This document shows positions 4,698 to 49,545 of a stretch of 64,000 nucleotides of DNA, one piece after another. A program made the translations under genes and the position numbers. Source of the DNA: an uncultured Alphaproteobacteria bacterium. GTDB taxonomy: Bacteria > Pseudomonadota > Alphaproteobacteria > RF32 > CAG-239. The stretch lies in contig CALXZH010000024.1 of NCBI GenBank assembly GCA_944393175.1, positions 29,813 to 93,812 on the forward strand, given 5' to 3'. The notes under the pieces are model-generated. The model ran no database searches. It was given only the letters and a program-made list of their open reading frames with translations, and was not told the DNA's origin. Every line of letters begins with the position of its first letter. Position 1 is the stretch's first letter.

Positions 4698-5861
4698 ATG
4701 CTTGGTAAAAAGATAAAAAAAATCAGAAATTGGTGGCAGAATAAAAAAAATCTGCCCCAATTTCGTGCCAAGCTGGCAAAACTTAAATCTGGTAAAGCGC
4801 CTTATAAAGTTGCTCTTATTTCTCATGAATTATCTTCAACCGGCGCCCCTTTGATGTTGTTGGCTGCCGCTAAAGCTATTTTACAAGATGGCGGACAGGT
4901 GAGGGTGCTGTCTTATCTGGATGGAAATTTAAAAGATAAATTTCAACATCTGGGGGTAGAAGTTTTCGTTCATCCCGAATTTCGGGATAATAAAAATTTG
5001 CTTAATGAATTTGCCGGTGATTGTGATTTTGCCGTGGCAAATACGGTTGTGACTTATCCTGTGATTTCTTTGCTTAAAGGACCACAAATTTTATGGTGGA
5101 TTCACGAGGGAAAAGTCATTGATGATGATTATATTGCTCGTTTCAGAAAAAAGAAATTTCGACCCGATTTGGAAGAAACTTTACGCTCGGCTCCAAAGGT
5201 GGCTGTTGTCAGCGATTATGCCAAGCAAGTAGTGGCTAAATATAATTCAAAGGTTCAAATTTTGAATTTGGCGGAAGATGATTGGTTTGGTGATTGTCTT
5301 GAGACAAAGAAAGTAGGCAATATTGTTCAAATTGCCATGATTGGTGCGGTTTGTCCGATTAAAGGACAAGATGTTGCCTTGCAGGCCATAAGTTCTTTAT
5401 CTGATGAGTATCAAAAGCAAATTTCTTTGGTCATTGCCGGAAAAAATGATAATGATTATGCTTATGGTTTAAGAGAAAAATATAAGCATTTATCCAATGT
5501 GCAATGGTATGGTGCTTTGCCTTTTGAAAAGCTTAAAGGTTTTTATGAGGAGCAAGATGTGATTTTGGTTGCCTCACGCGACGAATCTTTCTCTTTAGTG
5601 GCCTTAGAGGCTTGTATGGCAGCAAAACCTTTGATTGTCAGTTCAAATGTCGGGGCTAAATTCTTGGTTGAAAACGAAAAAAACGGTTTTGTATTTGACA
5701 GCGAAAACGCAAAAAATTTACAAGAGGTGCTGATTAAGCTGATTGAGAATCGTCAAAAGCTAAATCTGATGGGACAAGAATCGCGTAAAATTTACCTAAA
5801 ATATGGGAGTATTGACAGCTTTAGAAAAAATTTTTTGCACTTATTGAAAAATAATTTTTAA
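4698..5861 (+). CDS. glycosyltransferase, GT4/group-1 family
   Basis: 387 aa; C-terminal GT-B retaining glycosyltransferase-like region (EESFSLVALEACMAAKPLIVSSNVGA...). Confidence 0.6.
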   Translation: MLGKKIKKIRNWWQNKKNLPQFRAKLAKLKSGKAPYKVALISHELSSTGAPLMLLAAAKAILQDGGQVRVLSYLDGNLKDKFQHLGVEVFVHPEFRDNKNLLNEFAGDCDFAVANTVVTYPVISLLKGPQILWWIHEGKVIDDDYIARFRKKKFRPDLEETLRSAPKVAVVSDYAKQVVAKYNSKVQILNLAEDDWFGDCLETKKVGNIVQIAMIGAVCPIKGQDVALQAISSLSDEYQKQISLVIAGKNDNDYAYGLREKYKHLSNVQWYGALPFEKLKGFYEEQDVILVASRDESFSLVALEACMAAKPLIVSSNVGAKFLVENEKNGFVFDSENAKNLQEVLIKLIENRQKLNLMGQESRKIYLKYGSIDSFRKNFLHLLKNNF

Positions 5862-7328: not shown

Positions 7329-8289
7329 AGGCCTTTTTGTTTTTGGTAGAAATCAGTGAAGCGGCAATGCCAATGAAGATAATTGAAAATGTTATTGACA
7401 GTGAATGCCAAGCTTCAAGCTTTATTCCTACGTATGGGAGAAAGATTTTGCTTCCGATAAAAATTAAAATGATTGATAAAGCTTGTTTTAAGTAAACAAA
7501 ACGGTAAACTGCAGCTTCCAATAAGAAATATAATGCTCTTAAGCCCAGAATGGCAAAGATGTTACTGGTGTAGATGACAAATATATCTTGCGTAATCAGG
7601 AAAATTGCAGGGATACTATCTAGTGCGAAAATAACATCCATGGTTTCCACAATTAACAAAGCAAAGAATAATGGAGTGATGTAATGATGTCCATTTCTTT
7701 TCATAAAAAAGTGTTCGCCGTGTATTTCGTGGGTTACGTGAAAAAATTTAGAAATTGTTTTGTATAAGCGGGTTTCTTTTAGAGGTGTTTCTTCTTTGGA
7801 GGAAGGTAGTACCATCTTGATACCCGTATAGAGCAAGAATGCAGAAAACAAGTATAATACCCAGTGGAATTCTTTTATTAATGCATCTCCTACAAAAATG
7901 AGAATAGCTCGCATTACCAGTGCGCCTAAAATACCCCAGAACAGAACGCGGTGCTGATACATTCTTGGAATTTGTAACGAGGTGAAGACTAAAGAGATGA
8001 TGAAGACGTTATCTAAAGATAAGCTCTTTTCTACCAAAAATCCGGTAAAGAATAACATACCTTTATCAAATCCTTCTTCGTACATAACAAAGACGCCGAA
8101 AATGCAGGCGGCTAAAATATATACAATGCACAAAACCAATGTATGCATAAAATTTGGGACTTCGTTCTTGCGGTTAAAAAACAGTAAGTCCCAGAGTAAT
8201 AAAACAATTACGGCTATGCCGAATATTGTCCACATCCACGTTGAAGATAATGTGGCGTGATGTGTAAATAAATATTGTAATCTTTCCAT
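7327..8289 (-). CDS. TerC-family integral membrane protein
   Basis: 320 aa, multiple TM helices, TerC-like conserved segments (ALDSIPAIF, DNVFII). Confidence 0.75.
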   Translation of the reverse strand: MERLQYLFTHHATLSSTWMWTIFGIAVIVLLLWDLLFFNRKNEVPNFMHTLVLCIVYILAACIFGVFVMYEEGFDKGMLFFTGFLVEKSLSLDNVFIISLVFTSLQIPRMYQHRVLFWGILGALVMRAILIFVGDALIKEFHWVLYLFSAFLLYTGIKMVLPSSKEETPLKETRLYKTISKFFHVTHEIHGEHFFMKRNGHHYITPLFFALLIVETMDVIFALDSIPAIFLITQDIFVIYTSNIFAILGLRALYFLLEAAVYRFVYLKQALSIILIFIGSKIFLPYVGIKLEAWHSLSITFSIIFIGIAASLISTKNKKA

Positions 8290-16185: not shown

Positions 16186-16262
16186 GGCGGGGTAGCTCAG
16201 TTGGTTAGAGCGGTGGAATCATAATCCATGTGTCGGGAGTTCGAATCTCCCCCTCGCTACCA
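16186..16262 (+). tRNA. tRNA-Met (anticodon CAT; elongator Met or tRNA-Ile2/lysidine type, not initiator)
   Basis: 77-nt cloverleaf: GGCGGGG acceptor, TAGCTCAGTTGGTTAGAGC D-arm, anticodon loop ATCATAA, GGGAGTTCGAATCTCCC T-arm, encoded CCA; anticodon stem lacks the three G-C pairs of initiator tRNA. Confidence 0.9.
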
Positions 16263-16375
16263 AGATTTAGTAACAGTCCTTAGGGGCTGTTTTTTTGTAT
16301 CTGTTTACTTTTTAATGTTAGCAGAGCTCGGCAGTTTGTAAGCCTACAAACTGTGGGAGATTAGCACTTAGGCCG
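16246..16375 (+). repeat. 130-bp direct repeat copy 1 (includes last 17 nt of tRNA-Met plus trailer/terminator)
   Basis: Near-identical to 16474-16605 (one extra T, one C/T difference). Confidence 0.9.
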
Positions 16376-16473
16376 CTAATTAAAATTTCGAAAGTTATCG
16401 CTTTCTCATTTTAATAAGCGTTTCTAAGATTTTGCAGACAAAAACAATCAATCCGCTGATTGTTTTTGCTTAG

Positions 16474-16605
16474 CAATCCCCCTCGCTACCAAGATTTAGT
16501 AACAGTCTTTAGGGGCTGTTTTTTTTGTATCTGTTTACTTTTTAATGTTAGCAGAGCTCGGCAGTTTGTAAGCCTACAAACTGTGGGAGATTAGCACTTA
16601 GGCCG
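16474..16605 (+). repeat. 130-bp direct repeat copy 2 (begins with tRNA-Met 3'-end mimic AATCCCCCTCGCTACCA)
   Basis: Read directly; ends exactly at the stop codon of the downstream minus-strand ArsR-like gene. Confidence 0.9.
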
Positions 16606-16609
16606 TTCA

Positions 16610-17263
16610 TTAAAAGTCTGATTTGTCAGACAGAGAATCATAGCGTTTGTGGATGCATTGTACGGCGGTTTTGTGGACACCGGGGGTGATGTCATAAATA
16701 ATGAATCGACCCTCGCGGTGGCTGGTGACAAAGCCGTCATCCCGCAAGCGTTTGAGGTTTTGCGAGACTTTGAGCTGCTCACTTTCAATGCCGGTGATAA
16801 TGTCTGACACGCACGAAGAACCAAACAATGTGAGGTATTCCAATATCCGCATCTTATCAACATTGGCAAAAAGTTTGATTTGGTTGGCGGCCATCATTGT
16901 ATAATCTCTGGGAAGAAGGGCTTTGTAATCTTCTTGGAGGTAGTTAAAACTATCCGTCATATAACCATAGAGTTTGCGTAGGCAGGTAAATAAGCTGGCC
17001 GGATATTCCTCACAGATTTGATAAAAGATGAAAAGACCGCGGCGTTGGGTTTTAACCAAGTTGGCATCCCGCAATTTTTTGAGGCTTTGTGAGACAATCA
17101 TTTGCTCTTCTCTTACACCTTTGGCAATGGCCGAAACGCAAGACGCCCCATAAACATCGAGATATTCCAAAATTTGCAGCCTTAAGGGATGAGCTATGTA
17201 GCTCAATCCCTTAACGGCTTTTTTCATGGTTTCAAGAGGAAGTTGTTGTTCCATTAGTCTCAC
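16610..17263 (-). CDS. transcriptional regulator with two tandem ArsR/SmtB-family winged-HTH domains
   Basis: 217 aa; two internally repeated ~95-aa units each with ArsR-like HTH (CVSAIAKGV..SQSLKKLRDANLV / CVSDIITGI..SQNLKRLRDDGFV). Confidence 0.7.
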   Translation of the reverse strand: MRLMEQQLPLETMKKAVKGLSYIAHPLRLQILEYLDVYGASCVSAIAKGVREEQMIVSQSLKKLRDANLVKTQRRGLFIFYQICEEYPASLFTCLRKLYGYMTDSFNYLQEDYKALLPRDYTMMAANQIKLFANVDKMRILEYLTLFGSSCVSDIITGIESEQLKVSQNLKRLRDDGFVTSHREGRFIIYDITPGVHKTAVQCIHKRYDSLSDKSDF

Positions 17264-39770: not shown

Positions 39771-39846
<76 letters not shown>

Positions 39847-39974
39847 TCTAAAAGCCTTGGTTTTCCAAGGCTTTTTTTGTATTCAGTTCATGGCGTTTTT
39901 CTTGATGCATTCAACCAGTAAGCAAATAGTAAGCACTTCTATAGTAAATTCTTATAAGTTTGTGTAAGATTTGT

Positions 39975-40301
39975 TTAAATACAAAAGCAGACAATCCTTT
40001 CTTCTGTGTTTATATATAGGCTGTTACTTTCTACTCTTTTTATGAAATCTTCATCTGTTTCCTCCTCTGATTTATATTCGTCAAAATTACCCCAATCGCC
40101 ATTGATGATTGCATTATCTACGACAATATCTGGACGATTATTCTCGGAAATTCCACATTCACGGATTAAATCGCAAAAATAGTCCCATAAACAATCGGGA
40201 ATATGCCAATTGTAATGAGATTCTACAAAATTGCGTCGATTATCTAATAAATCAATATAATCATCGACGTCTAACTCAATTTTTATGGTATTATTTGTCA
40301 T
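39975..40301 (-). CDS. small acidic hypothetical protein (island cargo)
   Basis: ~108 aa from MTNNTIK (AAAGGA RBS); very acidic (DVDDYIDLLD, EEETDEDF); no family recognised. Confidence 0.4.
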   Translation of the reverse strand: MTNNTIKIELDVDDYIDLLDNRRNFVESHYNWHIPDCLWDYFCDLIRECGISENNRPDIVVDNAIINGDWGNFDEYKSEEETDEDFIKRVESNSLYINTEERIVCFCI

Positions 40302-40772
40302 TATCTTTTCCTTTAAGAATAACAGTTGAATAGACAATGTTTTTTTCAAAACATCACTAATCACTTGAAAAATTGGAAAAGCAAACGAATTTTCGTGTTC
40401 TAGGATAACATTAAAATGCGGTAACTTGTTGATTTTTCATGTATAAGTTTTGTTTAAGTGTTATTTTTGTCTTGTATGTATATATAAGTTAAAAAGTTAC
40501 AGAGTAATTTTGAGATTGAAGAGAAATATATTTATTGGCTTTCTATAAGTAAGGTAAAGAAAAATAACGTATTAAAAAAGTATTACATCCCCCATAGTTC
40601 CCAAAATAGGGGGAGTATGTATATGGCTAAAATCTATATATGACCTTAATAGCATGTGATTATCATTTTAGAGTATTTACATCTATAACTCAACTTGATG
40701 TTTTATTAATTTATATTTTACTATTGTGAGATATCTTTTATAGCCTAGATGTTTTTATGGAAAGGAAGAAAC

Positions 40773-41066
40773 ATGAAGAAAGTTTTAGTTGTTTGGGCTG
40801 GTATGTTGGGATTATCAGCTTGTGTAACTCATGTTGATGTTGCTTACCAGCAACAAGGAAGTAATTGCTTGTATTCAGAAAAAGTTTCAGGTGAAGGTCT
40901 TTTTGGCAGAGATAGAGTATTGGAAAAAACGATATCTTATGAAGCAACACAATGTTCTCAAGTTATTGCCAGTGATTTAAAAAATAACAATAATAAGGAT
41001 CAATCAATTGTGACCACTACAGGCTTTTTTGATGATAGTCCGGTAGTTGCTAGAGCTGTTAAGTAG
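40773..41066 (+). CDS. small lipoprotein (island cargo)
   Basis: 97 aa; signal peptide with lipobox LGLSAC; AAGGAAG RBS before ATG 40773. Confidence 0.45.
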   Translation: MKKVLVVWAGMLGLSACVTHVDVAYQQQGSNCLYSEKVSGEGLFGRDRVLEKTISYEATQCSQVIASDLKNNNNKDQSIVTTTGFFDDSPVVARAVK

Positions 41067-41346
41067 TTACAGTTATGCTATGACACATCATAGAGAAGGT
41101 GCTTTGTTAGCGCCTTCTTTTTTTATGTCAATATGTTATGGTGTATATTTCTTGTCCATCTCTTTAATATATAGAGAGATGGACAGAGAAAGAAAAATAA
41201 TCCTTGATTTTGAGAAGTATTATCGCTAACATTTTGTTAGCTAATATTTTATTAGTTAGTGCCTGAAGAGGTGCGGAGCTTTCATCGGCTCCTACTACAT
41301 TCGGTGTTAGGGATAACATCGTTAATTGTTATTATAACAATAATAT

Positions 41347-41380
41347 CCCCGACTATGGCTCAATGGTCGGGGAGCTTTTA
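41347..41380 (+). terminator. hairpin + U-tract (terminator-like) within structured leader
   Basis: CCCCGAC-12 nt-GTCGGGG followed by AGCTTTT. Confidence 0.4.
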
Positions 41381-41473
41381 GCATATGTTCAGAAATCATA
41401 TTTCTGTCTTTGAAAGAATGTGGTTTTAAAAGCTATAAGAATCATTTAATGTAGTATGATTGATGAACTCTCC

Positions 41474-41507
41474 GACCACCTTCTAAACAGGTGGTTTTTC
41501 TTTTAGA
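41474..41507 (+). terminator. hairpin + U-tract immediately upstream of DUF805 gene RBS (possible attenuator)
   Basis: ACCACCT-TCTAAAC-AGGTGGT followed by TTTTTCTTTT; RBS GGAGAGG begins 5 nt later. Confidence 0.45.
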
Positions 41508-41524
41508 TTTTGGAGAGGTATTTC

Positions 41525-42277
41525 ATGAATTCTTTGGTTCAGCTAGTGAAACATTCATTGAATGATGTTAATTCTACAAAAAATATTGATGTAATAAATG
41601 TAACAACTCGTTCAACACTATTACACGCAAAACATGTAAATAAATTTGAAAATCAATCAGATCAAACAAGTGAAATACAACAAATAGATAGCAATGTAGA
41701 GCATCCAATGCAATATCACATATCGCAAGGTACTATGATTTTGTATTTGCTATTTTTGGGTATAATAGGTGCTATTATATTTTATTTTATATTTCGAAAA
41801 GATAAGCATGATATGAAAGAAGTTAAAATGTTGAAAAATAAAAAATTTTCTATTTACAATCCTGCATTTGGCAATTTATTATTTTGTTCTGGTAGAATAA
41901 ATCGTTTACATTATTTTATCTATACACTTATTTTATCTGTGTTTTTTATGTTTCTGGTTTGGGGAATGATTTCCCTCAAAATAGATCCTGAATCCATTTT
42001 ATACACCGTAATTATTTTACGGTGGGTGGTTGGTCTCCCTCTTGTGTCCAAAAGATGCCATGATATTAATGTCAGTGTAAGTTATTATATTATGTATTCT
42101 ATATTTTGCTGCTTACTCTCTTTGTTTTCAGCAGATGAGTTTAGTCAGATTGTAACGTTTTTAATTAGAGGAGTTGATACTATAATTGCATTAATATTGT
42201 TGTTTAAGAAAGGAACTAATGGCAATAATAGATTTGGTATTTCCCCTTTGAAGACTAAGGAGAAAAAAAATGACTAG
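41525..42277 (+). CDS. DUF805-family inner-membrane protein with ~70-aa N-terminal cytoplasmic extension
   Basis: C-terminal 3-TM region with DUF805 hallmarks (GRINRLHY, KRCHDINVS, NRFG near C-terminus); ATG 41525 preceded by GGAGAGG; stop overlaps next gene start (ATGA). Confidence 0.65.
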   Translation: MNSLVQLVKHSLNDVNSTKNIDVINVTTRSTLLHAKHVNKFENQSDQTSEIQQIDSNVEHPMQYHISQGTMILYLLFLGIIGAIIFYFIFRKDKHDMKEVKMLKNKKFSIYNPAFGNLLFCSGRINRLHYFIYTLILSVFFMFLVWGMISLKIDPESILYTVIILRWVVGLPLVSKRCHDINVSVSYYIMYSIFCCLLSLFSADEFSQIVTFLIRGVDTIIALILLFKKGTNGNNRFGISPLKTKEKKND

Positions 42278-43829
42278 AAAATTTAAATATAGCCTTTGTG
42301 GCTTTGTTATATTTATAATTCTTGCCGTTTCTGCTTGTATATGCACGAATAATCAAGATGAGCTTATTCAGGATGATAAAGTTGCTTTTTCTCCTTCTAA
42401 AGAGTGTGAAAATACAATTATTAGCCTTATAAAACATTCTGAGAAAATTGATATAGTCGTGTTTGATATTAATAATGATAATATTGTTGAGGCTTTGCAG
42501 AAAGCTGAAAAACAAGGTAAAAAAATCAGAATACTTACGGATAAAAGACAAGCAGCGACTAAAGCCTCTAAAGTTATAGATTTGTATAAAGCTGGGATTA
42601 ATATTCGTGTAAATTCAAAGAACAAAATTGAACATAACAAATTTGCGGTATTTGATAATAAGTATGTGATTACAGGTTCTTATAATTGGACTAATCCGGC
42701 AAGTGAGAGAAATAGTGAAAATTGCCTTCTTTCTGTGGAAAATGAAGATATTATAGAAGATTATAATAATCGTTTTGAGTATTTGTGGCAGATAAATACA
42801 AAGAAAAAATCTGAGGCGTGGTTCCACAAAAAATTAAATCAAAAACAATATAATAATCGTAAATATATTACCAAACAGCAGCAAAAAAAGATAGAAAAGG
42901 TCTTAGATGATAGTATTCAGACCTTTTCGGCTAAGGGTGGCGCGGTTATTGTTTTAGATGCAGATAGTTCTCAAGTGCTATCGATGACTTCTATCCATAA
43001 AGGGGAGGGTGTTGTTGATTATATTGCGGATTATACATACCAACTTGGTTCGATTTATATGCCGTTTACAGTTGCTTTGGGTATAAAACAAAATGTTGTT
43101 TCAAATACGACGGAATTTGATGTTTCTAAGCCTTTGAATGTTCAAGGGTATAACATTTCAGACGTTAATCCTCTAAAAGTTGATAAAATTACTCTGCAAG
43201 ATGTGTTGTCTAAAAGTTCTAACATTGCGACTGCACAAATTGCTACGGATATAACGCCTAAACAACATAATAAATTTTTAAAATCTTTAGGTTTGGGAGA
43301 ACCGATTGTTTTAGAAAATTTGCATACAGCTAAGCCGATTTTACCGGATTTAGATGATGAAATTACTATAGCCAATTTGGGATATGGTTTTGGTATTTAT
43401 GCAACGCCATTACATGTGGCAGCAGCTTATGCAGCTTTGGTCAATGGCGGTCAATATCATGCCCTATATCTCAAAAAATCTGAAAAAACGGATGGTAAAC
43501 AAGTTATTCCTTCCCAAATATCGAAAGAAATGCGTGAATATTTACGTCAAGTCGTTACAAATGGTTCGGCAAGAAAAGCTAATCTTTCGTATGTAGATGT
43601 TATGGCAAAGACAGGAACTGTGTCTAAAATGATTGATGGAAAGTATCATGACAATATTGTTATAACTCATGTTGTGGGAAATTTTGAATATAATGGTATG
43701 CACTATGTTGTATATGTTTTACTTGATGAACCGCAACCGACAAAACAAACTTATGGGTTTGTAACGTCAGGTTGGAATGCGGTTCCGACGATGGCTCAAA
43801 TTATTAATATCATAGCAAAAAAATCTTAA
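42270..43829 (+). CDS. lipoprotein fusing an N-terminal single-HKD phospholipase-D/Nuc-like nuclease domain to a C-terminal class-B PBP transpeptidase-like domain with degenerate SxxK (SIYM)
   Basis: Lipobox AVSAC; HKD motif H122-x-K-x4-D129 followed by GSYNWT (Nuc/PLD family); C-terminal domain shows PBP motifs SSN (316-318) and KTG (447-449) at canonical spacing, but the SxxK position reads S261-I-Y-M264. Confidence 0.65.
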   Translation: MTRKFKYSLCGFVIFIILAVSACICTNNQDELIQDDKVAFSPSKECENTIISLIKHSEKIDIVVFDINNDNIVEALQKAEKQGKKIRILTDKRQAATKASKVIDLYKAGINIRVNSKNKIEHNKFAVFDNKYVITGSYNWTNPASERNSENCLLSVENEDIIEDYNNRFEYLWQINTKKKSEAWFHKKLNQKQYNNRKYITKQQQKKIEKVLDDSIQTFSAKGGAVIVLDADSSQVLSMTSIHKGEGVVDYIADYTYQLGSIYMPFTVALGIKQNVVSNTTEFDVSKPLNVQGYNISDVNPLKVDKITLQDVLSKSSNIATAQIATDITPKQHNKFLKSLGLGEPIVLENLHTAKPILPDLDDEITIANLGYGFGIYATPLHVAAAYAALVNGGQYHALYLKKSEKTDGKQVIPSQISKEMREYLRQVVTNGSARKANLSYVDVMAKTGTVSKMIDGKYHDNIVITHVVGNFEYNGMHYVVYVLLDEPQPTKQTYGFVTSGWNAVPTMAQIINIIAKKS

Positions 43830-43911
43830 AACATACATCGAGTAACACAAAATAATTATATGCCTGTCCAATATATTATATATATAAATATTGGACAGGC
43901 TATATTATATG

Positions 43912-44970
43912 TTATTTTTCAGCTTTCAGAATGTTGCCGATAGTTGATTTGGAAATTCCTGTTGTATTAGCAATTTCTCTATAGCTTGCACCTTGTTCAT
44001 GCAATGTTTTTACGATAGAATAAGTATCAACCCAAGCAATACCTCCGTCCGTAGTATCTACTAAATCAATATTAAAATTTGAAATGTCTTTGCTCGAAAG
44101 GTTACGGTTCTTTTCAAATTTTAAACGACATCTACCGCCGTAAATCGCATATTCGTCTGATATATCTGAATAGTTTTCTTCAGCTTCTTCTGTTTTGGTG
44201 AGCTTTTTCTTGTTTGGTGTCGTGACTTCAAGATTAATCACTGTATCTAGTATATCTTCTCTTTTAGATATTCCTCTTTGGCCACCTCTCTTTCCAGAAT
44301 GATGAACTAATAATACAGCAATTCCTTGTTTCCTTAGCTCCATTAGCCACTCTTGAATTATAAGCCAAGCATTCCCGTCTAATTCATCTATCTTAGTTAA
44401 AGATGATATATTATCTAAGATAACAAATTTTATATTTTCGTTGAAAATAATATCATTAATATTTTTTTGCATTAAACCATACGCAATATCAATTGAGGTA
44501 AATGGTTGTAAATCCGCTGAAAAAATATGCAAGTTGTCCATTGCATTCACTTCTGTATCAAAATTTTTAGCTATTTTTGAAAAGCGTTCTTGAAGTAAGT
44601 TTGCTTGCATTTCCCCATCAATATATAACACATTTGAAGGTTTATAGGCTTTCCAACGTAAGAATTTACTTCCAGTTGCAATTGCGTAAGCTAAAGACAT
44701 AGCAAAAAAGCTTTTTCCTACTCCTCTATAAGCATGTAACATTGTTAGACTTTTAGCGTGAATAATCGGATCAAGTAGCATTTCTGGCTTAGGCAAATTC
44801 AATTGCATAAAATTCTTTAAGTTAAATATTTTACAAGGATTTTTATTCTCTTGATTATTTGTAATATTTATATTATTGTCGTTTGCAGGATTGGTTGATA
44901 AATCAATCGTTTGTTCTACTCCGTCTTGTTCCAGCAAGGCGGAATTTTTTATATCCATATTATCTTCCAT
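43912..44970 (-). CDS. RepA/DnaB-like RecA-fold ATPase (AAA_25-like) with C-terminal HTH; island replication/mobilisation protein
   Basis: Walker A AYRGVGKS, Walker B FVILDN, HHSGK motif; C-terminal HTH (SYREIANTTGISKSTIGNIL). Confidence 0.65.
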   Translation of the reverse strand: MEDNMDIKNSALLEQDGVEQTIDLSTNPANDNNINITNNQENKNPCKIFNLKNFMQLNLPKPEMLLDPIIHAKSLTMLHAYRGVGKSFFAMSLAYAIATGSKFLRWKAYKPSNVLYIDGEMQANLLQERFSKIAKNFDTEVNAMDNLHIFSADLQPFTSIDIAYGLMQKNINDIIFNENIKFVILDNISSLTKIDELDGNAWLIIQEWLMELRKQGIAVLLVHHSGKRGGQRGISKREDILDTVINLEVTTPNKKKLTKTEEAEENYSDISDEYAIYGGRCRLKFEKNRNLSSKDISNFNIDLVDTTDGGIAWVDTYSIVKTLHEQGASYREIANTTGISKSTIGNILKAEK

Positions 44971-45217
44971 AGTTTATCTCCTTTTTTGAATATTCAGAAG
45001 TTGATGTTACTTTAGAGGTTTGCGAATCTAACCAATCTAAAACGTCTTGCTTTTTGTATAGTCGCTTGTTTCCCAATTTTATATAAGGGATACCACCGCC
45101 TGATACAGCTTTGCAGTTAAACCATGAGATTGATTTGTTGAGATATGCAGCAACAATTTTTGTTGGCAACAATGCATCTGCCGGAGCAGATAGAAAATTA
45201 TTTAAATTATTATTCAA
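44960..45217 (-). CDS. AlpA-family phage/island regulatory protein (excisionase-like HTH)
   Basis: 85 aa; AlpA-like pattern (PTKIVAAYLNKSISWFNC...GIPYIKLGNKRLYKKQDVLDWL); overlaps repA-like start by 11 nt. Confidence 0.65.
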   Translation of the reverse strand: MNNNLNNFLSAPADALLPTKIVAAYLNKSISWFNCKAVSGGGIPYIKLGNKRLYKKQDVLDWLDSQTSKVTSTSEYSKKEINYGR

Positions 45218-45345
45218 ATCTTTTTCCTTTCTTTAAAAGGTTACAGTTTCAATCAACTGCATTCAAAGAATTAGGAAAAATCTTTAGAGAAGTATAGTCC
45301 TCAACTTAGATGATGTTGTACCCTACTGGGTAAATGTACAAACTT

Positions 45346-46029
45346 TTATTGAATATTCTTTTTCTTCTTGGGATATAACATTCTTCGAATCGATAAAGAA
45401 TAGTCTGAATTGCACCAATTATATGCTATTTCTTTTGCATATTCCTGAAGTTTTTTTATATTTTCTTCTTTATTGGCAAAATGATTTATGGTTAATTTTT
45501 TATTCAAGTTTTTTTGCTGTTCAAATAAATCCTTGGTATATTTCTTTAGTCTCTCATGCTTGTCGTTTTTGGCTTTTACTCCTGCGTTGCTTATTTCGAG
45601 CTGTCTTTCTTGTAATATTTGTTTAGCCAGTTCTGCATCGGTATATTTGAGATGTTTGATACAAATATCAAATCCATTAGAAAATACTAAGAAGGCAAGG
45701 TATAATCCGTCTTTGTTATTTTGAAGTCCTGTATATATATTGTGTAGCTTTTGTTGTAGAACTGTCAGTTCTTTATTGGGATAAACTTTATTACCTTTCC
45801 AAAAATCAACTACTGTCTTTATGGTTAAATTTTTTTCTTCTTTTTCTAGCAAAAATACAGAAATATTGATTAAATTTATGAATAATGAGCTTGTTGCATA
45901 ATTATCAGCCCCAAACCCCGTTAAATTATAAAAATATTCGCTGGGATCTAATATAAAATAATCCTGATTAAGATTATAAGCATCGGTTATCAATAATTCA
46001 TAAATTTCTCTGATTTCTTGTCTTTTCAT
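45346..46029 (-). CDS. hypothetical protein (island, between int and alpA)
   Basis: 227-aa ORF, no recognisable motif; sits where satellite regulators are often found. Confidence 0.4.
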   Translation of the reverse strand: MKRQEIREIYELLITDAYNLNQDYFILDPSEYFYNLTGFGADNYATSSLFINLINISVFLLEKEEKNLTIKTVVDFWKGNKVYPNKELTVLQQKLHNIYTGLQNNKDGLYLAFLVFSNGFDICIKHLKYTDAELAKQILQERQLEISNAGVKAKNDKHERLKKYTKDLFEQQKNLNKKLTINHFANKEENIKKLQEYAKEIAYNWCNSDYSLSIRRMLYPKKKKNIQ

Positions 46030-46047
46030 AAAATAACCTTCTCTGTG

Positions 46048-47274
46048 TTATACTATTTTATTAAATATGTTTACCACATTATTGGTTTCATTTTCTTTAA
46101 CTCCGGCTTGTTTTAGTATGTAATCTTCTATAAGTTGCATTGGCTTACGCAAGGTTTCAGTTTCAAATTGGATATATCCTGCGGTAACATCATCTTCGGA
46201 ATGGTTTAAGAGCTTTTTTAGTGTAAAATTTGTTATTCCGGCAATATGATTATTGGCAATACTGGCAAAAGTTCGGCGAATATCATGTAAAGAGAATTTA
46301 ATACCGCTGTTTTCTGCAATGTGTTGTACAGTTTTTCTTTGATTTTCAACATGCCCACTTTTATTTTGAGCTGGAAAAACGTATATCGAATCGTTATTTT
46401 CTTTTAATTTTAACAAAAACTCTCTTAAATATTCTCCCATCGGTAGAATGTGTTCTTTGTGGTTTTTGGTATGTTCAAAGGTAATGGTGTTTAATTTGAA
46501 GTCAATATTGCACCATTTTAGAGTTCCGGCTTCTTGGTCTCGACATCCAGTAAATAGAATGAATAAACATTGATTTTTAACTGTTTTTACGTTTTCAGTG
46601 TCTTGTTCATGGTGTTGAAGTCCAAAAAAGAAGGTTTTAATTTGAGATGGGTGAATGTAACTTTGTCTTCTGGGTACTTTATTCCATAATTTGAAGGCTT
46701 TTAATCGATTGCAAGGATTGGAAGGAATGATTGGTTCTCCATTTACTATATATTTTTCCATTGCAAAATTAAATACGGCTCTTAAAAATCTAAAATCAGA
46801 GTTAGCAATAGATTTTGATGATTTAGATGTATCCAGAAATCTATTTTCTATCATTTCACGAGAGATATTCGTTAGAGCTTTATTTGCCCAATCTTTAAAA
46901 CAAAGGCGCATACTCCGTTCATATTTTATTTTTGTGCTTTCAGTAATGGTTTTAATCTTAATGTATTCTTCATAGGCTTGTTGTAGGGTAATACTTTTTG
47001 TCTTTTCTTCCTTTTCTCTGGTTGTAATGTCTATGCCTTGAGCTAGATCACCTAGATATTTTTTTGCTATTCTACGAGCTTCTTCGGGAGTAAAAACATT
47101 AATCTGACCTATTTTTTTACGAATTGTTTTTCCTCTATCGTTTCTCGCTTGTATAATATAGCTGATTTTTTTCTTGGTTACTTTTATGCCGAATCCTTTT
47201 AGGTCATCATCCCAGTAAAATTCTTCTTTGTCTGTGAATTTTAACTTATCAATATTTGATTTATTAATTTTCAT
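46048..47274 (-). CDS. int: tyrosine site-specific integrase, P4-type (N-terminal DUF4102-like arm-binding domain)
   Basis: 408 aa; catalytic R (GCRDQEAGTLKW), HDIRRT, and C-terminal VTAGYI Tyr; N-terminal MKINKSNIDKLKFTDKEEFYWDD...GFGIKV typical of P4-family integrases that target tRNA genes. Confidence 0.9.
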   Translation of the reverse strand: MKINKSNIDKLKFTDKEEFYWDDDLKGFGIKVTKKKISYIIQARNDRGKTIRKKIGQINVFTPEEARRIAKKYLGDLAQGIDITTREKEEKTKSITLQQAYEEYIKIKTITESTKIKYERSMRLCFKDWANKALTNISREMIENRFLDTSKSSKSIANSDFRFLRAVFNFAMEKYIVNGEPIIPSNPCNRLKAFKLWNKVPRRQSYIHPSQIKTFFFGLQHHEQDTENVKTVKNQCLFILFTGCRDQEAGTLKWCNIDFKLNTITFEHTKNHKEHILPMGEYLREFLLKLKENNDSIYVFPAQNKSGHVENQRKTVQHIAENSGIKFSLHDIRRTFASIANNHIAGITNFTLKKLLNHSEDDVTAGYIQFETETLRKPMQLIEDYILKQAGVKENETNNVVNIFNKIV

Positions 47275-47446
47275 TTTAAATTTCCTTTCTAAAATCAGTA
47301 AGCAAATAGTAAGCAGATTTGATAGAAATGCTTATGAGATGAGAAATGTTTCTGTAAGAATGAAAATTAAATAAATCAAGTAAAAACAATTGGTTATATA
47401 AGAAACTGTAAACAGAACAAATATGTTGTAATATCGCTTTACCAAA

Positions 47447-47526
47447 ACTGAAAATCCTCGTGTCGGCGGTTCAATCCCGTCCCCGAGCACCATCTAAAAG
47501 CCTTGGTTTTCCAAGGCTTTTGTTGT
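47447..47526 (+). repeat. attR-like direct repeat: copy of tRNA-Phe nt 31-76 plus downstream terminator
   Basis: ACTGAAAATCCTCGTGTCGGCGGTTCAATCCCGTCCCCGAGCACCATCTAAAAGCCTTGGTTTTCCAAGGCTTTT identical to 39801-39875. Confidence 0.9.
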
Positions 47527-47930
47527 ATGGTGCTCTCGCCAATCGAGCGGCGCAGGGCTTGCTCTCTTGGGGACGGGCCTCGCTTTGAAACTTAATTTCA
47601 CTTCCGAAACTGTTCGTTTCGTCGTTCAATAAATTTTCAAAGATGTTGCATACAAAAACAATCAATCGTGATTGTTTTTGCTTAGCCATCCCAACTCGCA
47701 CCATCTAAAAGCCTTGGTTTTCCAAGGCTTTTGTTGTATGGTGCTCTCGCCAATCGAGCGGCGCAGGGCTTGCTCTCTTGGGGACGGGCCTCGCTTTGAA
47801 ACTTAATTTCACTTCCGAAATTGTTCGTTTCGTCGTTCAATAAATTTTCAAAGATGTTGCAGACAAAAACAATCAATCGTGATTGTTTTTGCTTAGCCAT
47901 CCCAACTCGCACCATCTAAAAGCCTCCGAT
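47493..47930 (+). repeat. 211-bp tandem repeat, 2 complete copies + 16-bp start of a third; each unit ends in a tRNA-3'-end mimic (CCCAACTCGCACCA)
   Basis: Units 47493-47703 and 47704-47914 near-identical (period 211); third begins TCTAAAAGCCT then diverges. Confidence 0.9.
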
Positions 47931-48914: not shown

Positions 48915-49196
48915 ATGAAAAACTTTAACTCTACTTCTAATTCTTCTTTAAACTTAAGTGAAAGCGCTATTCGTGAAGCTGCTTACTATATTTGGAAAAA
49001 TAACGGTTGCCCGGCTAACACCAGCTTGAGCGACTGGAATGCTGCTATTAACCAACTTTCTTCTATGGCTGCTTTGAACTCTGCTGCTAAGAAAATTTCT
49101 ACAAAGACTTCTTCTTGCAAAGCTTCTACCTTGGTTAAGAAAACTCCGGTTAAAAAAGCTGCTAAAACTACTGCCAAAAAGAAATCTTCTAAATAG
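48915..49196 (+). CDS. DUF2934-family small protein
   Basis: IREAAYYIWKNNGCPANTSLSDWNAA matches DUF2934 signature; Ala/Lys-rich tail. Confidence 0.5.
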   Translation: MKNFNSTSNSSLNLSESAIREAAYYIWKNNGCPANTSLSDWNAAINQLSSMAALNSAAKKISTKTSSCKASTLVKKTPVKKAAKTTAKKKSSK

Positions 49197-49302
49197 TTGG
49201 TATGTTGGTAAACTAAAGGCTCCGCAAAAGGAGCCTTTTTTCATAATTATTTAATCTTTTTGATTTAATATGCTTTTATTATTAAGTGTTGGGAGATGTC
49301 AT

Positions 49303-49545
49303 ATGTTTGATGAAAAAACTATTCGTGAGACGGCTTATTATATTTGGAAAAATAACGGTTGTCCGGCTAATACTTCTACTCAGGATTGGAATGCCGCAAT
49401 TGAGCAATTAGAGCAGAAAGATGCTTTGGCTACCGCTAAACAAATATCTTCTTTGTATCAAGCGGCTTTCTTGAATTCTTTGACCAAAAGCAAAAGCCGT
49501 AAAAAAGATAGCTTACAGTTAATGCGCCAAATCATTTTGAAATAA
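49303..49545 (+). CDS. DUF2934-family small protein (paralog)
   Basis: IRETAYYIWKNNGCPANTSTQDWNAA; ATG 49303 preceded by GGGAGA RBS. Confidence 0.5.
   Translation: MFDEKTIRETAYYIWKNNGCPANTSTQDWNAAIEQLEQKDALATAKQISSLYQAAFLNSLTKSKSRKKDSLQLMRQIILK

Follow-up and report, generated by a model that had tools for sequence, protein, structure and literature searches.

Strains of one uncultured gut-type alphaproteobacterium differ in whether they carry a small unit without genes, restricted to tRNA 3' ends and bounded exactly by direct repeats. We analysed 64,000 nt of DNA from such a bacterium (hereafter the window), in which the unit lies once behind tRNA-Met and twice, in tandem, behind tRNA-Phe, and in which all three copies contain the same palindromic module. 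Comparison with other strains showed that the unit is polymorphic in presence and in copy number. We consider it most likely to be either a remnant or a passenger, tiny and without genes, of integrative elements that target tRNA genes. More specifically, we tentatively favour a reading in which its core, called M here, makes up the element-side arm of an attachment site at tRNA 3' ends, surviving as a gene-less, repeat-bounded unit like a cis-mobilizable element (CIME; for the term, see PMC5704250 and PMC7563491).

At the tRNA-Met locus, the order is tRNA, terminator, a spacer (X), M-Met, the last 15 nt of the tRNA, the terminator and X again. The features are as follows, all on the plus strand.

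16186-16262, plus: intact tRNA-Met (CAT), whose last 15 nt open direct repeat copy 1 (ARAGORN, Rfam)
16248-16385, plus: direct repeat copy 1, made of the tRNA 3' 15 nt, a terminator hairpin (16272-16291) and spacer X (repeat search, terminator scan, alignment)
about 16367-16428, plus: long imperfect hairpin H1, lying partly in X (predicted folds)
16386-16476, plus: M-Met, 91 nt, the sole DNA missing from strains with an empty site (occupied versus empty strains; folds)
16428-16478, plus: extended module hairpin of 20 pairs, with 12-bp arms at 16439-16450 and 16457-16468 and the loop ATCCGC
16477-16491, plus: pseudo tRNA 3' end TCCCCCTCGCTACCA, identical to 16248-16262 (sequence comparison)
16477-16615, plus: direct repeat copy 2, 98-99% identical to copy 1 (repeat search, alignment)

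The direct repeat (138 nt) thus consists of 15 nt of the tRNA and 123 nt beyond it. Among strains of the same species with near-identical flanks, the site is occupied in the window, L076 and L077 and empty in L083 and L084, which carry the tRNA, the terminator, X and an ArsR-like gene with a single 138-nt block. The occupied site has 229 extra nt, namely the 91-nt M and a second 138-nt block (tRNA 3' end, terminator, X). Because M is missing from the empty site, the occupied allele is not a plain duplication. The L076 site matches that of the window, and the L077 site is occupied with a 32-nt deletion that takes exactly the top of H1 (ctaattaaaatt/gtttctaag; about 4700-4760); the tRNA-Met region of L077 appears to be prone to hairpin-mediated deletion. 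In L077, the junction of spacer X with the ArsR-like gene also differs from that in the other strains. This gene (16610-17263, minus strand) is convergent with tRNA-Met, encodes a 217-aa protein with two tandem ArsR-type HTH_5 domains and adjoins the second repeat copy with its 3' end.

A related species (glycosyltransferase 88% identical) has no M behind its tRNA-Met, and synteny of this locus is mostly lost in more distant relatives. Three public assemblies break inside the tRNA-Met repeat, and five contigs (L053, L054, L055, L078 and L079) end inside or beside it. The repeat probably breaks short-read assemblies, and counts of occupied alleles in metagenome-assembled genomes (MAGs) may therefore be too low. 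We found no support for M-Met as a decayed copy of tRNA-Met beyond the 15-nt end.

The tRNA-Phe locus is a proven integration hot spot, in which a 7.6 kb island that is present in the window is absent from other strains. It is laid out as follows.

39771-39846, plus: intact tRNA-Phe (GAA), attL of the 7.6 kb island (ARAGORN, repeat search, Rfam)
39847-47446, no strand assigned: the 7.6 kb integrated island (repeat search, domain search, strain comparison)
42270-43829, plus: island gene for a PLD-like domain fused to a penicillin-binding transpeptidase domain
43912-44970, minus: island gene for a protein with AAA_25 and HTH domains
44960-45217, minus: island gene for an AlpA-like HTH protein
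46048-47274, minus: island gene for a P4-type integrase (Arm-DNA-bind_3 and Phage_integrase)
47447-47492, plus: displaced 46-nt 3' half of tRNA-Phe, attR of the island (repeat search)
47493-47703, plus: Phe-type unit 1, 211 nt (repeat search, folds)
47493-47528, plus: terminator-like hairpin A of unit 1
47529-47592, plus: GC-rich left part of unit 1
47528-47577, minus: interrupted inverted copy of the 17 nt at the true tRNA-Phe 3' end, as TGGTGCTC (47528-47535), 33 nt and GGGGACGGG (47569-47577)
47583-47642 and 47642-47690, plus: M-Phe of unit 1, made of hairpin H1 and the extended palindrome, respectively
47690-47703, plus: pseudo-end of unit 1
47704-47914, plus: Phe-type unit 2, 99% identical to unit 1, with its palindrome at 47853-47901 and its pseudo-end at 47901-47914 (repeat search, nhmmer)

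The island, which also encodes a DUF805 protein, is flanked by an 82-nt direct repeat consisting of the 46-nt tRNA-Phe 3' half and hairpin A. The Phe-type module copies lie 7.6 kb from tRNA-Phe, past the island and beside the displaced 46-nt fragment. Each Phe unit runs from hairpin A through the left part and M (H1 and the palindromic module) to the pseudo-end CCCAACTCGCACCA, behind which TCTAAAA and a hairpin follow once more; our repeat search placed GCACCATCTAAAA and a hairpin directly after the displaced tRNA-Phe fragment and after each unit. The left part has 64% G+C versus 38% for the window, and its homology to the Met spacer X was not significant. The hairpin after the last unit has decayed in the window's species.

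Copy number at tRNA-Phe varies within one species. On contigs whose flanking encoded proteins are exactly identical, we counted one unit in L072, L073 and L075 and two in the window, L066 and L064. The L066 locus is like that of the window. The three single-unit loci lack the island, as do L064 and L065, each with two units that are ~5% diverged. A related genome (L095 and L096) has the same island at tRNA-Phe in another genomic context, with 0 units after attR.

Several observations concern the surroundings of the island and the units. A motif, AAYCAGTAAGCAAATAGTAAGC, stands just upstream of the integrase start codon and occurs in the window at 39913-39958 and 47293-47338; at the island's other end it adjoins a truncated start (ATGCATCAAGAAAAACGC...), and it is also found downstream of the unit in L037 (about 2530-2570) and L028 (about 7780-7820). 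These copies look like relics of earlier integrase genes, left by repeated integrations at the tRNA-Phe site. Downstream of the variable region, every related locus retains a pair of tandem DUF2934 paralogues (48915-49196 and 49270-49545 in the window; 86% identical over 63 nt of DNA). Between the unit and this pair, the window has a gene for a hexapeptide transferase, L074 has genes for an XRE regulator and a 255-aa protein, and L037 has none.

To the three module copies in the window (16426-16481, 47641-47695 and 47852-47906), each directly 5' of a pseudo tRNA 3' end, we applied pattern and profile searches. The gapped palindrome pattern matched at 16442-16465, 47656-47677 and 47867-47888, with 0 matches in 100 shuffles. 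With the tRNA-Met copy as the query, nhmmer matched both tRNA-Phe copies over ~105 nt (E = 8.7e-11 and 7.9e-10) and gave no further significant match in the 64 kb. Both searches bore out the earlier note on this DNA, which had proposed one module shared by the two tRNA loci. Its account of the palindrome needed revision: the perfect inverted repeat measures 12 bp (arms CAAAAACAATCA / TGATTGTTTTTG) rather than the 14 bp claimed, and the 6-nt loop it described holds at tRNA-Met but is 4 nt at tRNA-Phe. The suggestion that the palindrome is a terminator fell away: it has just two G-C pairs among its 12, it lacks a T run behind the stem, and our terminator scans did not call it. The note had also seen similarity ~50 bp further upstream; that stretch is ~67% identical between the loci but not significant when taken alone (p about 0.18). 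Prolonged outward, the palindrome forms a 20-pair imperfect hairpin (16428-16478, 47642-47690 and 47853-47901), directly 3' of which lies a conserved tail of 12-13 nt. The Met and Phe copies have ~20% divergence elsewhere, yet the 12-bp palindrome stays perfect.

The sequence that follows the module was said to mimic the 3' end of the local tRNA. This is so at tRNA-Met, where 15 nt are identical, but the Phe pseudo-end has only GCACCA in common with tRNA-Phe, and we found no copy of the real 17-nt tRNA-Phe end there when up to three mismatches were allowed. As a candidate attachment core, a 6-nt match would be very short, which counts against it. Aligned by hand, with no tool, the Phe pseudo-end is nearer to the Met-type end (ATCCCAACTCGC-ACCA vs ATCCCC-CTCGCTACCA). 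The two pseudo-ends are homologous to each other instead of each deriving from its local tRNA, so the swapped specificity proposed in the earlier note is unsupported.

Two other traces of tRNA-Phe lie inside the unit. The split inverted copy of its true end (8 + 9 nt) recurs in unit 2 at 47739-47788 and appeared in 0 of 3000 shuffles. M-Phe holds a direct, though diverged, copy of the 3' half of tRNA-Phe (z = 5.8; p about 0.006), as is expected of attachment-site DNA at a tRNA gene. Behind the terminator of each of the two tRNAs stands an inverted and interrupted copy of that tRNA's 3' end, perfect at tRNA-Phe and weaker at tRNA-Met (16317-16385), with an inserted hairpin separating the acceptor part from the T-stem part. 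A similar inverted piece in a related species (L097, about 380-440) reads on its other strand as a tRNA-like T-arm and ACCA.

To determine how widely the module is distributed, we scanned one genome for each of 185,579 species (GTDB). The module was present in four other genomes, all of them uncultured alphaproteobacterial MAGs. Three of the four carry a single unit directly downstream of tRNA-Phe, and the fourth locus (L028) ends inside the unit. The palindrome pattern by itself matched 44 loci across the genomes, 40 of them unrelated, such as a coding motif that is conserved in Flavobacteria. Between species, the Phe-type unit is 97-99% identical, with M almost invariant; in the same species pairs, identity is ~81% for flgE DNA and 76-87% for the spacer 5' of the tRNA, and the terminator hairpins flanking the unit vary from genome to genome or switch from one of the types A and B to the other. 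Remnants of the island's left end adjoin the pseudo-end and hairpin A in L037 and L028, as they do tRNA-Phe in the window, which suggests that the pseudo-end has served as an attachment site. Both concerns attached to the earlier proposal were thereby eased: the module is conserved in related genomes, and it is not a generic REP-like repeat, since all copies found anywhere adjoin a tRNA 3' end. A dispersed repeat of REP or MITE type was rejected on the same distribution, with three copies in 64 kb, at tRNA ends only, and likewise at tRNA-Phe in other species.

Searches for genes and for a parent element were negative. We detected no conserved open reading frame in the unit (211-229 nt). A 77-aa minus-strand frame covers each Phe unit (47471-47704 and 47682-47915) and is not conserved: the loop at tRNA-Met, which differs by 2 nt, breaks it, as does the loss of 1 nt in L064 unit 2. 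Public protein collections hold 77-83 aa 'proteins' from the minus strand of the unit (P0047-P0049), which are almost certainly spurious gene calls. No integrase lies near tRNA-Met, and the only integrase of the region belongs to the separate 7.6 kb island; no relatives of this integrase were found in IMG/VR. M itself was not found in IMG/VR, where the viral scans gave chance matches only, or in JGI metagenomes, where a second scan returned nine unrelated AT-rich hairpins; phage and plasmid records had no similarity to it. Thus, no recombinase or autonomous element carrying M turned up in the window, the GTDB genomes, IMG/VR, JGI, phages or plasmids, in a clade that is thinly sampled. Homology between M and the arms of that island is unsupported: Smith-Waterman alignment with shuffles was marginal (p 0.005-0.1), and nhmmer found nothing.

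tRNA genes are the main landing sites of genomic islands. Units at tRNA 3' ends only, repeats that start inside the tRNA and precise absence without M together point to the footprint of a Campbell-type integration. We infer that the unit integrated site-specifically; the 138-nt tRNA-Met repeat is itself sufficient for homologous recombination, so site-specific recombination is not required. In the mechanism we propose, M (about 65-105 nt) would be the conserved core of a small gene-less unit whose boundaries would be direct repeats of the last tRNA bases, the trailer and the terminator. The long hairpin region of M would sit directly against the crossover core at ...CTCGC(T)ACCA, and the palindrome's most plausible role would be to bind a dimeric protein or to form a folded-strand structure for the recombination system. 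Recombination between the tRNA-end repeats would let the unit enter, leave and multiply as a block, the agent being a tyrosine integrase acting in trans or RecA acting on the 138-nt and 211-nt repeats. The unit would then persist without cargo or integrase, as a CIME or a bare integrated attP does. The tRNA-Phe copy would have arisen when a Met-type element crossed over at a secondary site in (GC)ACCA. Two observations sit badly with this mechanism: neither a parent element nor a cognate recombinase came to light and, above all, the Phe-type unit has changed far less between species than the genes and spacers around it, which would not be expected of neutral debris. The idea of a family targeting tRNA 3' ends, raised before this analysis, is partly right: the repeat-bounded insertion or deletion at tRNA 3' ends supports it, but no recombinase was found for it.

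Because the unit contains neither integrase nor cargo, its closest category is a gene-less, att-flanked element (CIME) or an integrated attachment-site arm. Like a CIME, it has direct repeats of the attL/attR type, no integrase, recombination or transfer genes, a used integration site and tandem arrays (accretion). Known CIMEs, however, span kilobases and can clearly be traced to a recognisable ICE, whereas the unit has 91-175 nt of unique DNA and no known, autonomous parent element. CIMEs related to ICESt1 and ICESt3 of Streptococcus thermophilus exemplify such leftovers of ICEs and IMEs. According to Williams in 2002, crossovers reportedly fall at three sublocations in tRNA genes. Genomic islands and prophages that enter tRNA and tmRNA genes through tyrosine integrases are collected in the Islander database (PMC4383910). 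With tRNA islands the unit shares an intact tRNA on one side, a direct repeat of that tRNA's 3' end on the opposite side, stacked remnants, presence or absence between strains bounded by the repeats, and a crossover apparently at the asymmetric extreme 3' end. It differs from them in lacking an internal integrase gene and cargo, and in a repeat that extends 123 nt past tRNA-Met and only 6 nt within tRNA-Phe.

Other known systems resemble it in part. A heterobivalent attP of the lambda type is also about 200-240 bp as a whole and has a conserved arm beside a short shared core, but normally contains short direct arm repeats and IHF and Xis sites, whereas one long palindrome dominates the unit. 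MITEs and REPs are likewise small, non-coding, hairpin-forming and variable between strains; the unit, by contrast, has 0-2 copies per locus, occurs at two tRNA 3' ends only and shows no target-site duplication of the transposase type. With integron attC sites and the attP of CTX phage it shares strong single-strand folds, cassette-like arrays and 5' segments complementary to a core-like 3' end. This resemblance is structural only, and the locus has no integron integrase, attI or Xer/dif-like site.

We weighed the attachment-site reading against several others. One takes the ~175-nt unit (16317-16491; 47529-47703) for a structured small RNA, which we consider unlikely. Such an RNA would be transcribed with or just after the tRNA, would reuse the tRNA's 3' end, trailer and terminator, and would end in ...ACCA; its 5' part would pair with the pseudo-end to close a multi-hairpin fold, and its copy number would change by unequal crossing-over. 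Conservation of the unit above that of the flanking gene and spacer, the G+C-rich left part, and the recurrence of the tRNA's trailer and hairpin behind each pseudo-end fit this reading. So do the predicted folds, which are strong in the Phe unit (z = -3.7) and in the Met unit (z = -5.65) and in both contain a closing helix that joins the 5' start with the pseudo-end. In the outer stem of the 20-pair hairpin, a G/T difference on the left between the Met and Phe loci faces a C/A difference on the right, so that G-C becomes U-A and pairing is kept, and one G.U pair is permitted on the plus strand only. This one compensatory pair, however, is drawn from no more than four distinct sequences, and 121 of 500 shuffles perform equally well. 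The whole-unit RNAalifold covariation term was positive (+1.55, penalising), the closing helix is broken in L064 unit 2 and L067, and the minus strand folds equally well. The complementary 5' segments fit the real tRNA-Phe end (17/17) better than the unit's own pseudo-end. ARAGORN and Rfam reported two true tRNAs only and no tRNA, tmRNA, permuted tmRNA, tRNA-like or Rfam match in the unit, the best sub-threshold Rfam matches being at chance level. We found no promoter-like site in or before the unit, and a terminator hairpin separates it from the tRNA. Decay of the hairpin after the last unit in the window's species, dispensability at tRNA-Met and absence at tRNA-Phe of another genome also speak against a small RNA.

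The unit could instead be inert debris of old integrations at two tRNA hot spots, varying through RecA only and carrying a palindrome without function; this, too, seems improbable to us. The 138-nt and 211-nt repeats give homologous recombination more than enough to work on, the locus is pieced together from tRNA-Phe fragments of both orientations, the search for a cognate recombinase was negative, and decay is visible in the loss of the H1 top in L077 and in several degenerative changes in L064 unit 2. Inert debris should decay, yet the unit is 97-99% identical across species and M near-invariant while the adjacent hairpins and spacers have diverged, which argues for selection or recent horizontal spread. 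The perfect palindrome in both the Met and Phe copies and the compensatory outer-stem change, kept despite their divergence, likewise argue against debris. It is very unlikely that the hairpin and a single-stranded tail form the cleavage site of a relaxase (oriT-like), an HUH transposase or a Rep protein and that the unit is a mobilisable passenger. The geometry of a 20-pair hairpin followed by its conserved tail suits such an enzyme, both strands fold well singly, and loci of related genomes include VirB8 (type IV secretion) genes, but no relaxase, Rep or TnpA gene lies nearby and plasmid records hold nothing similar. An element of the IS200/IS605 type was rejected: it inserts without flanking duplication, whereas the direct repeats here (13 to 138 nt) run past the element end, and the open reading frames around both loci include no TnpA. 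Finally, we regard it as quite doubtful that the unit is either an active gene-less 'miniature integrative element' or a tRNA-trailer RNA with a split antisense and a decoy CCA end. The former would be the tyrosine-recombinase counterpart of a MITE, mobilised in trans between tRNA CCA ends and between species, and its folded strand would pair the 5' segments with the tRNA-like end to mimic the core, by analogy with attC and CTX-phage attP. In the latter, the split antisense would target the tRNA's own 3' end.

Small non-coding pieces at tRNA genes are usually ignored or mis-annotated, as with the spurious 77-aa 'gene' here. The cargo-less unit of ~200 bp described above, conserved across species yet variable between strains, could serve as a minimal substrate for defining what tRNA-3'-end integrases need in cis. 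Pseudo-att sites and breaks in the assembly at tRNA genes of MAGs might also be accounted for by it. If its conservation reflects an RNA, the unit would represent a new class of tRNA-trailer RNA.
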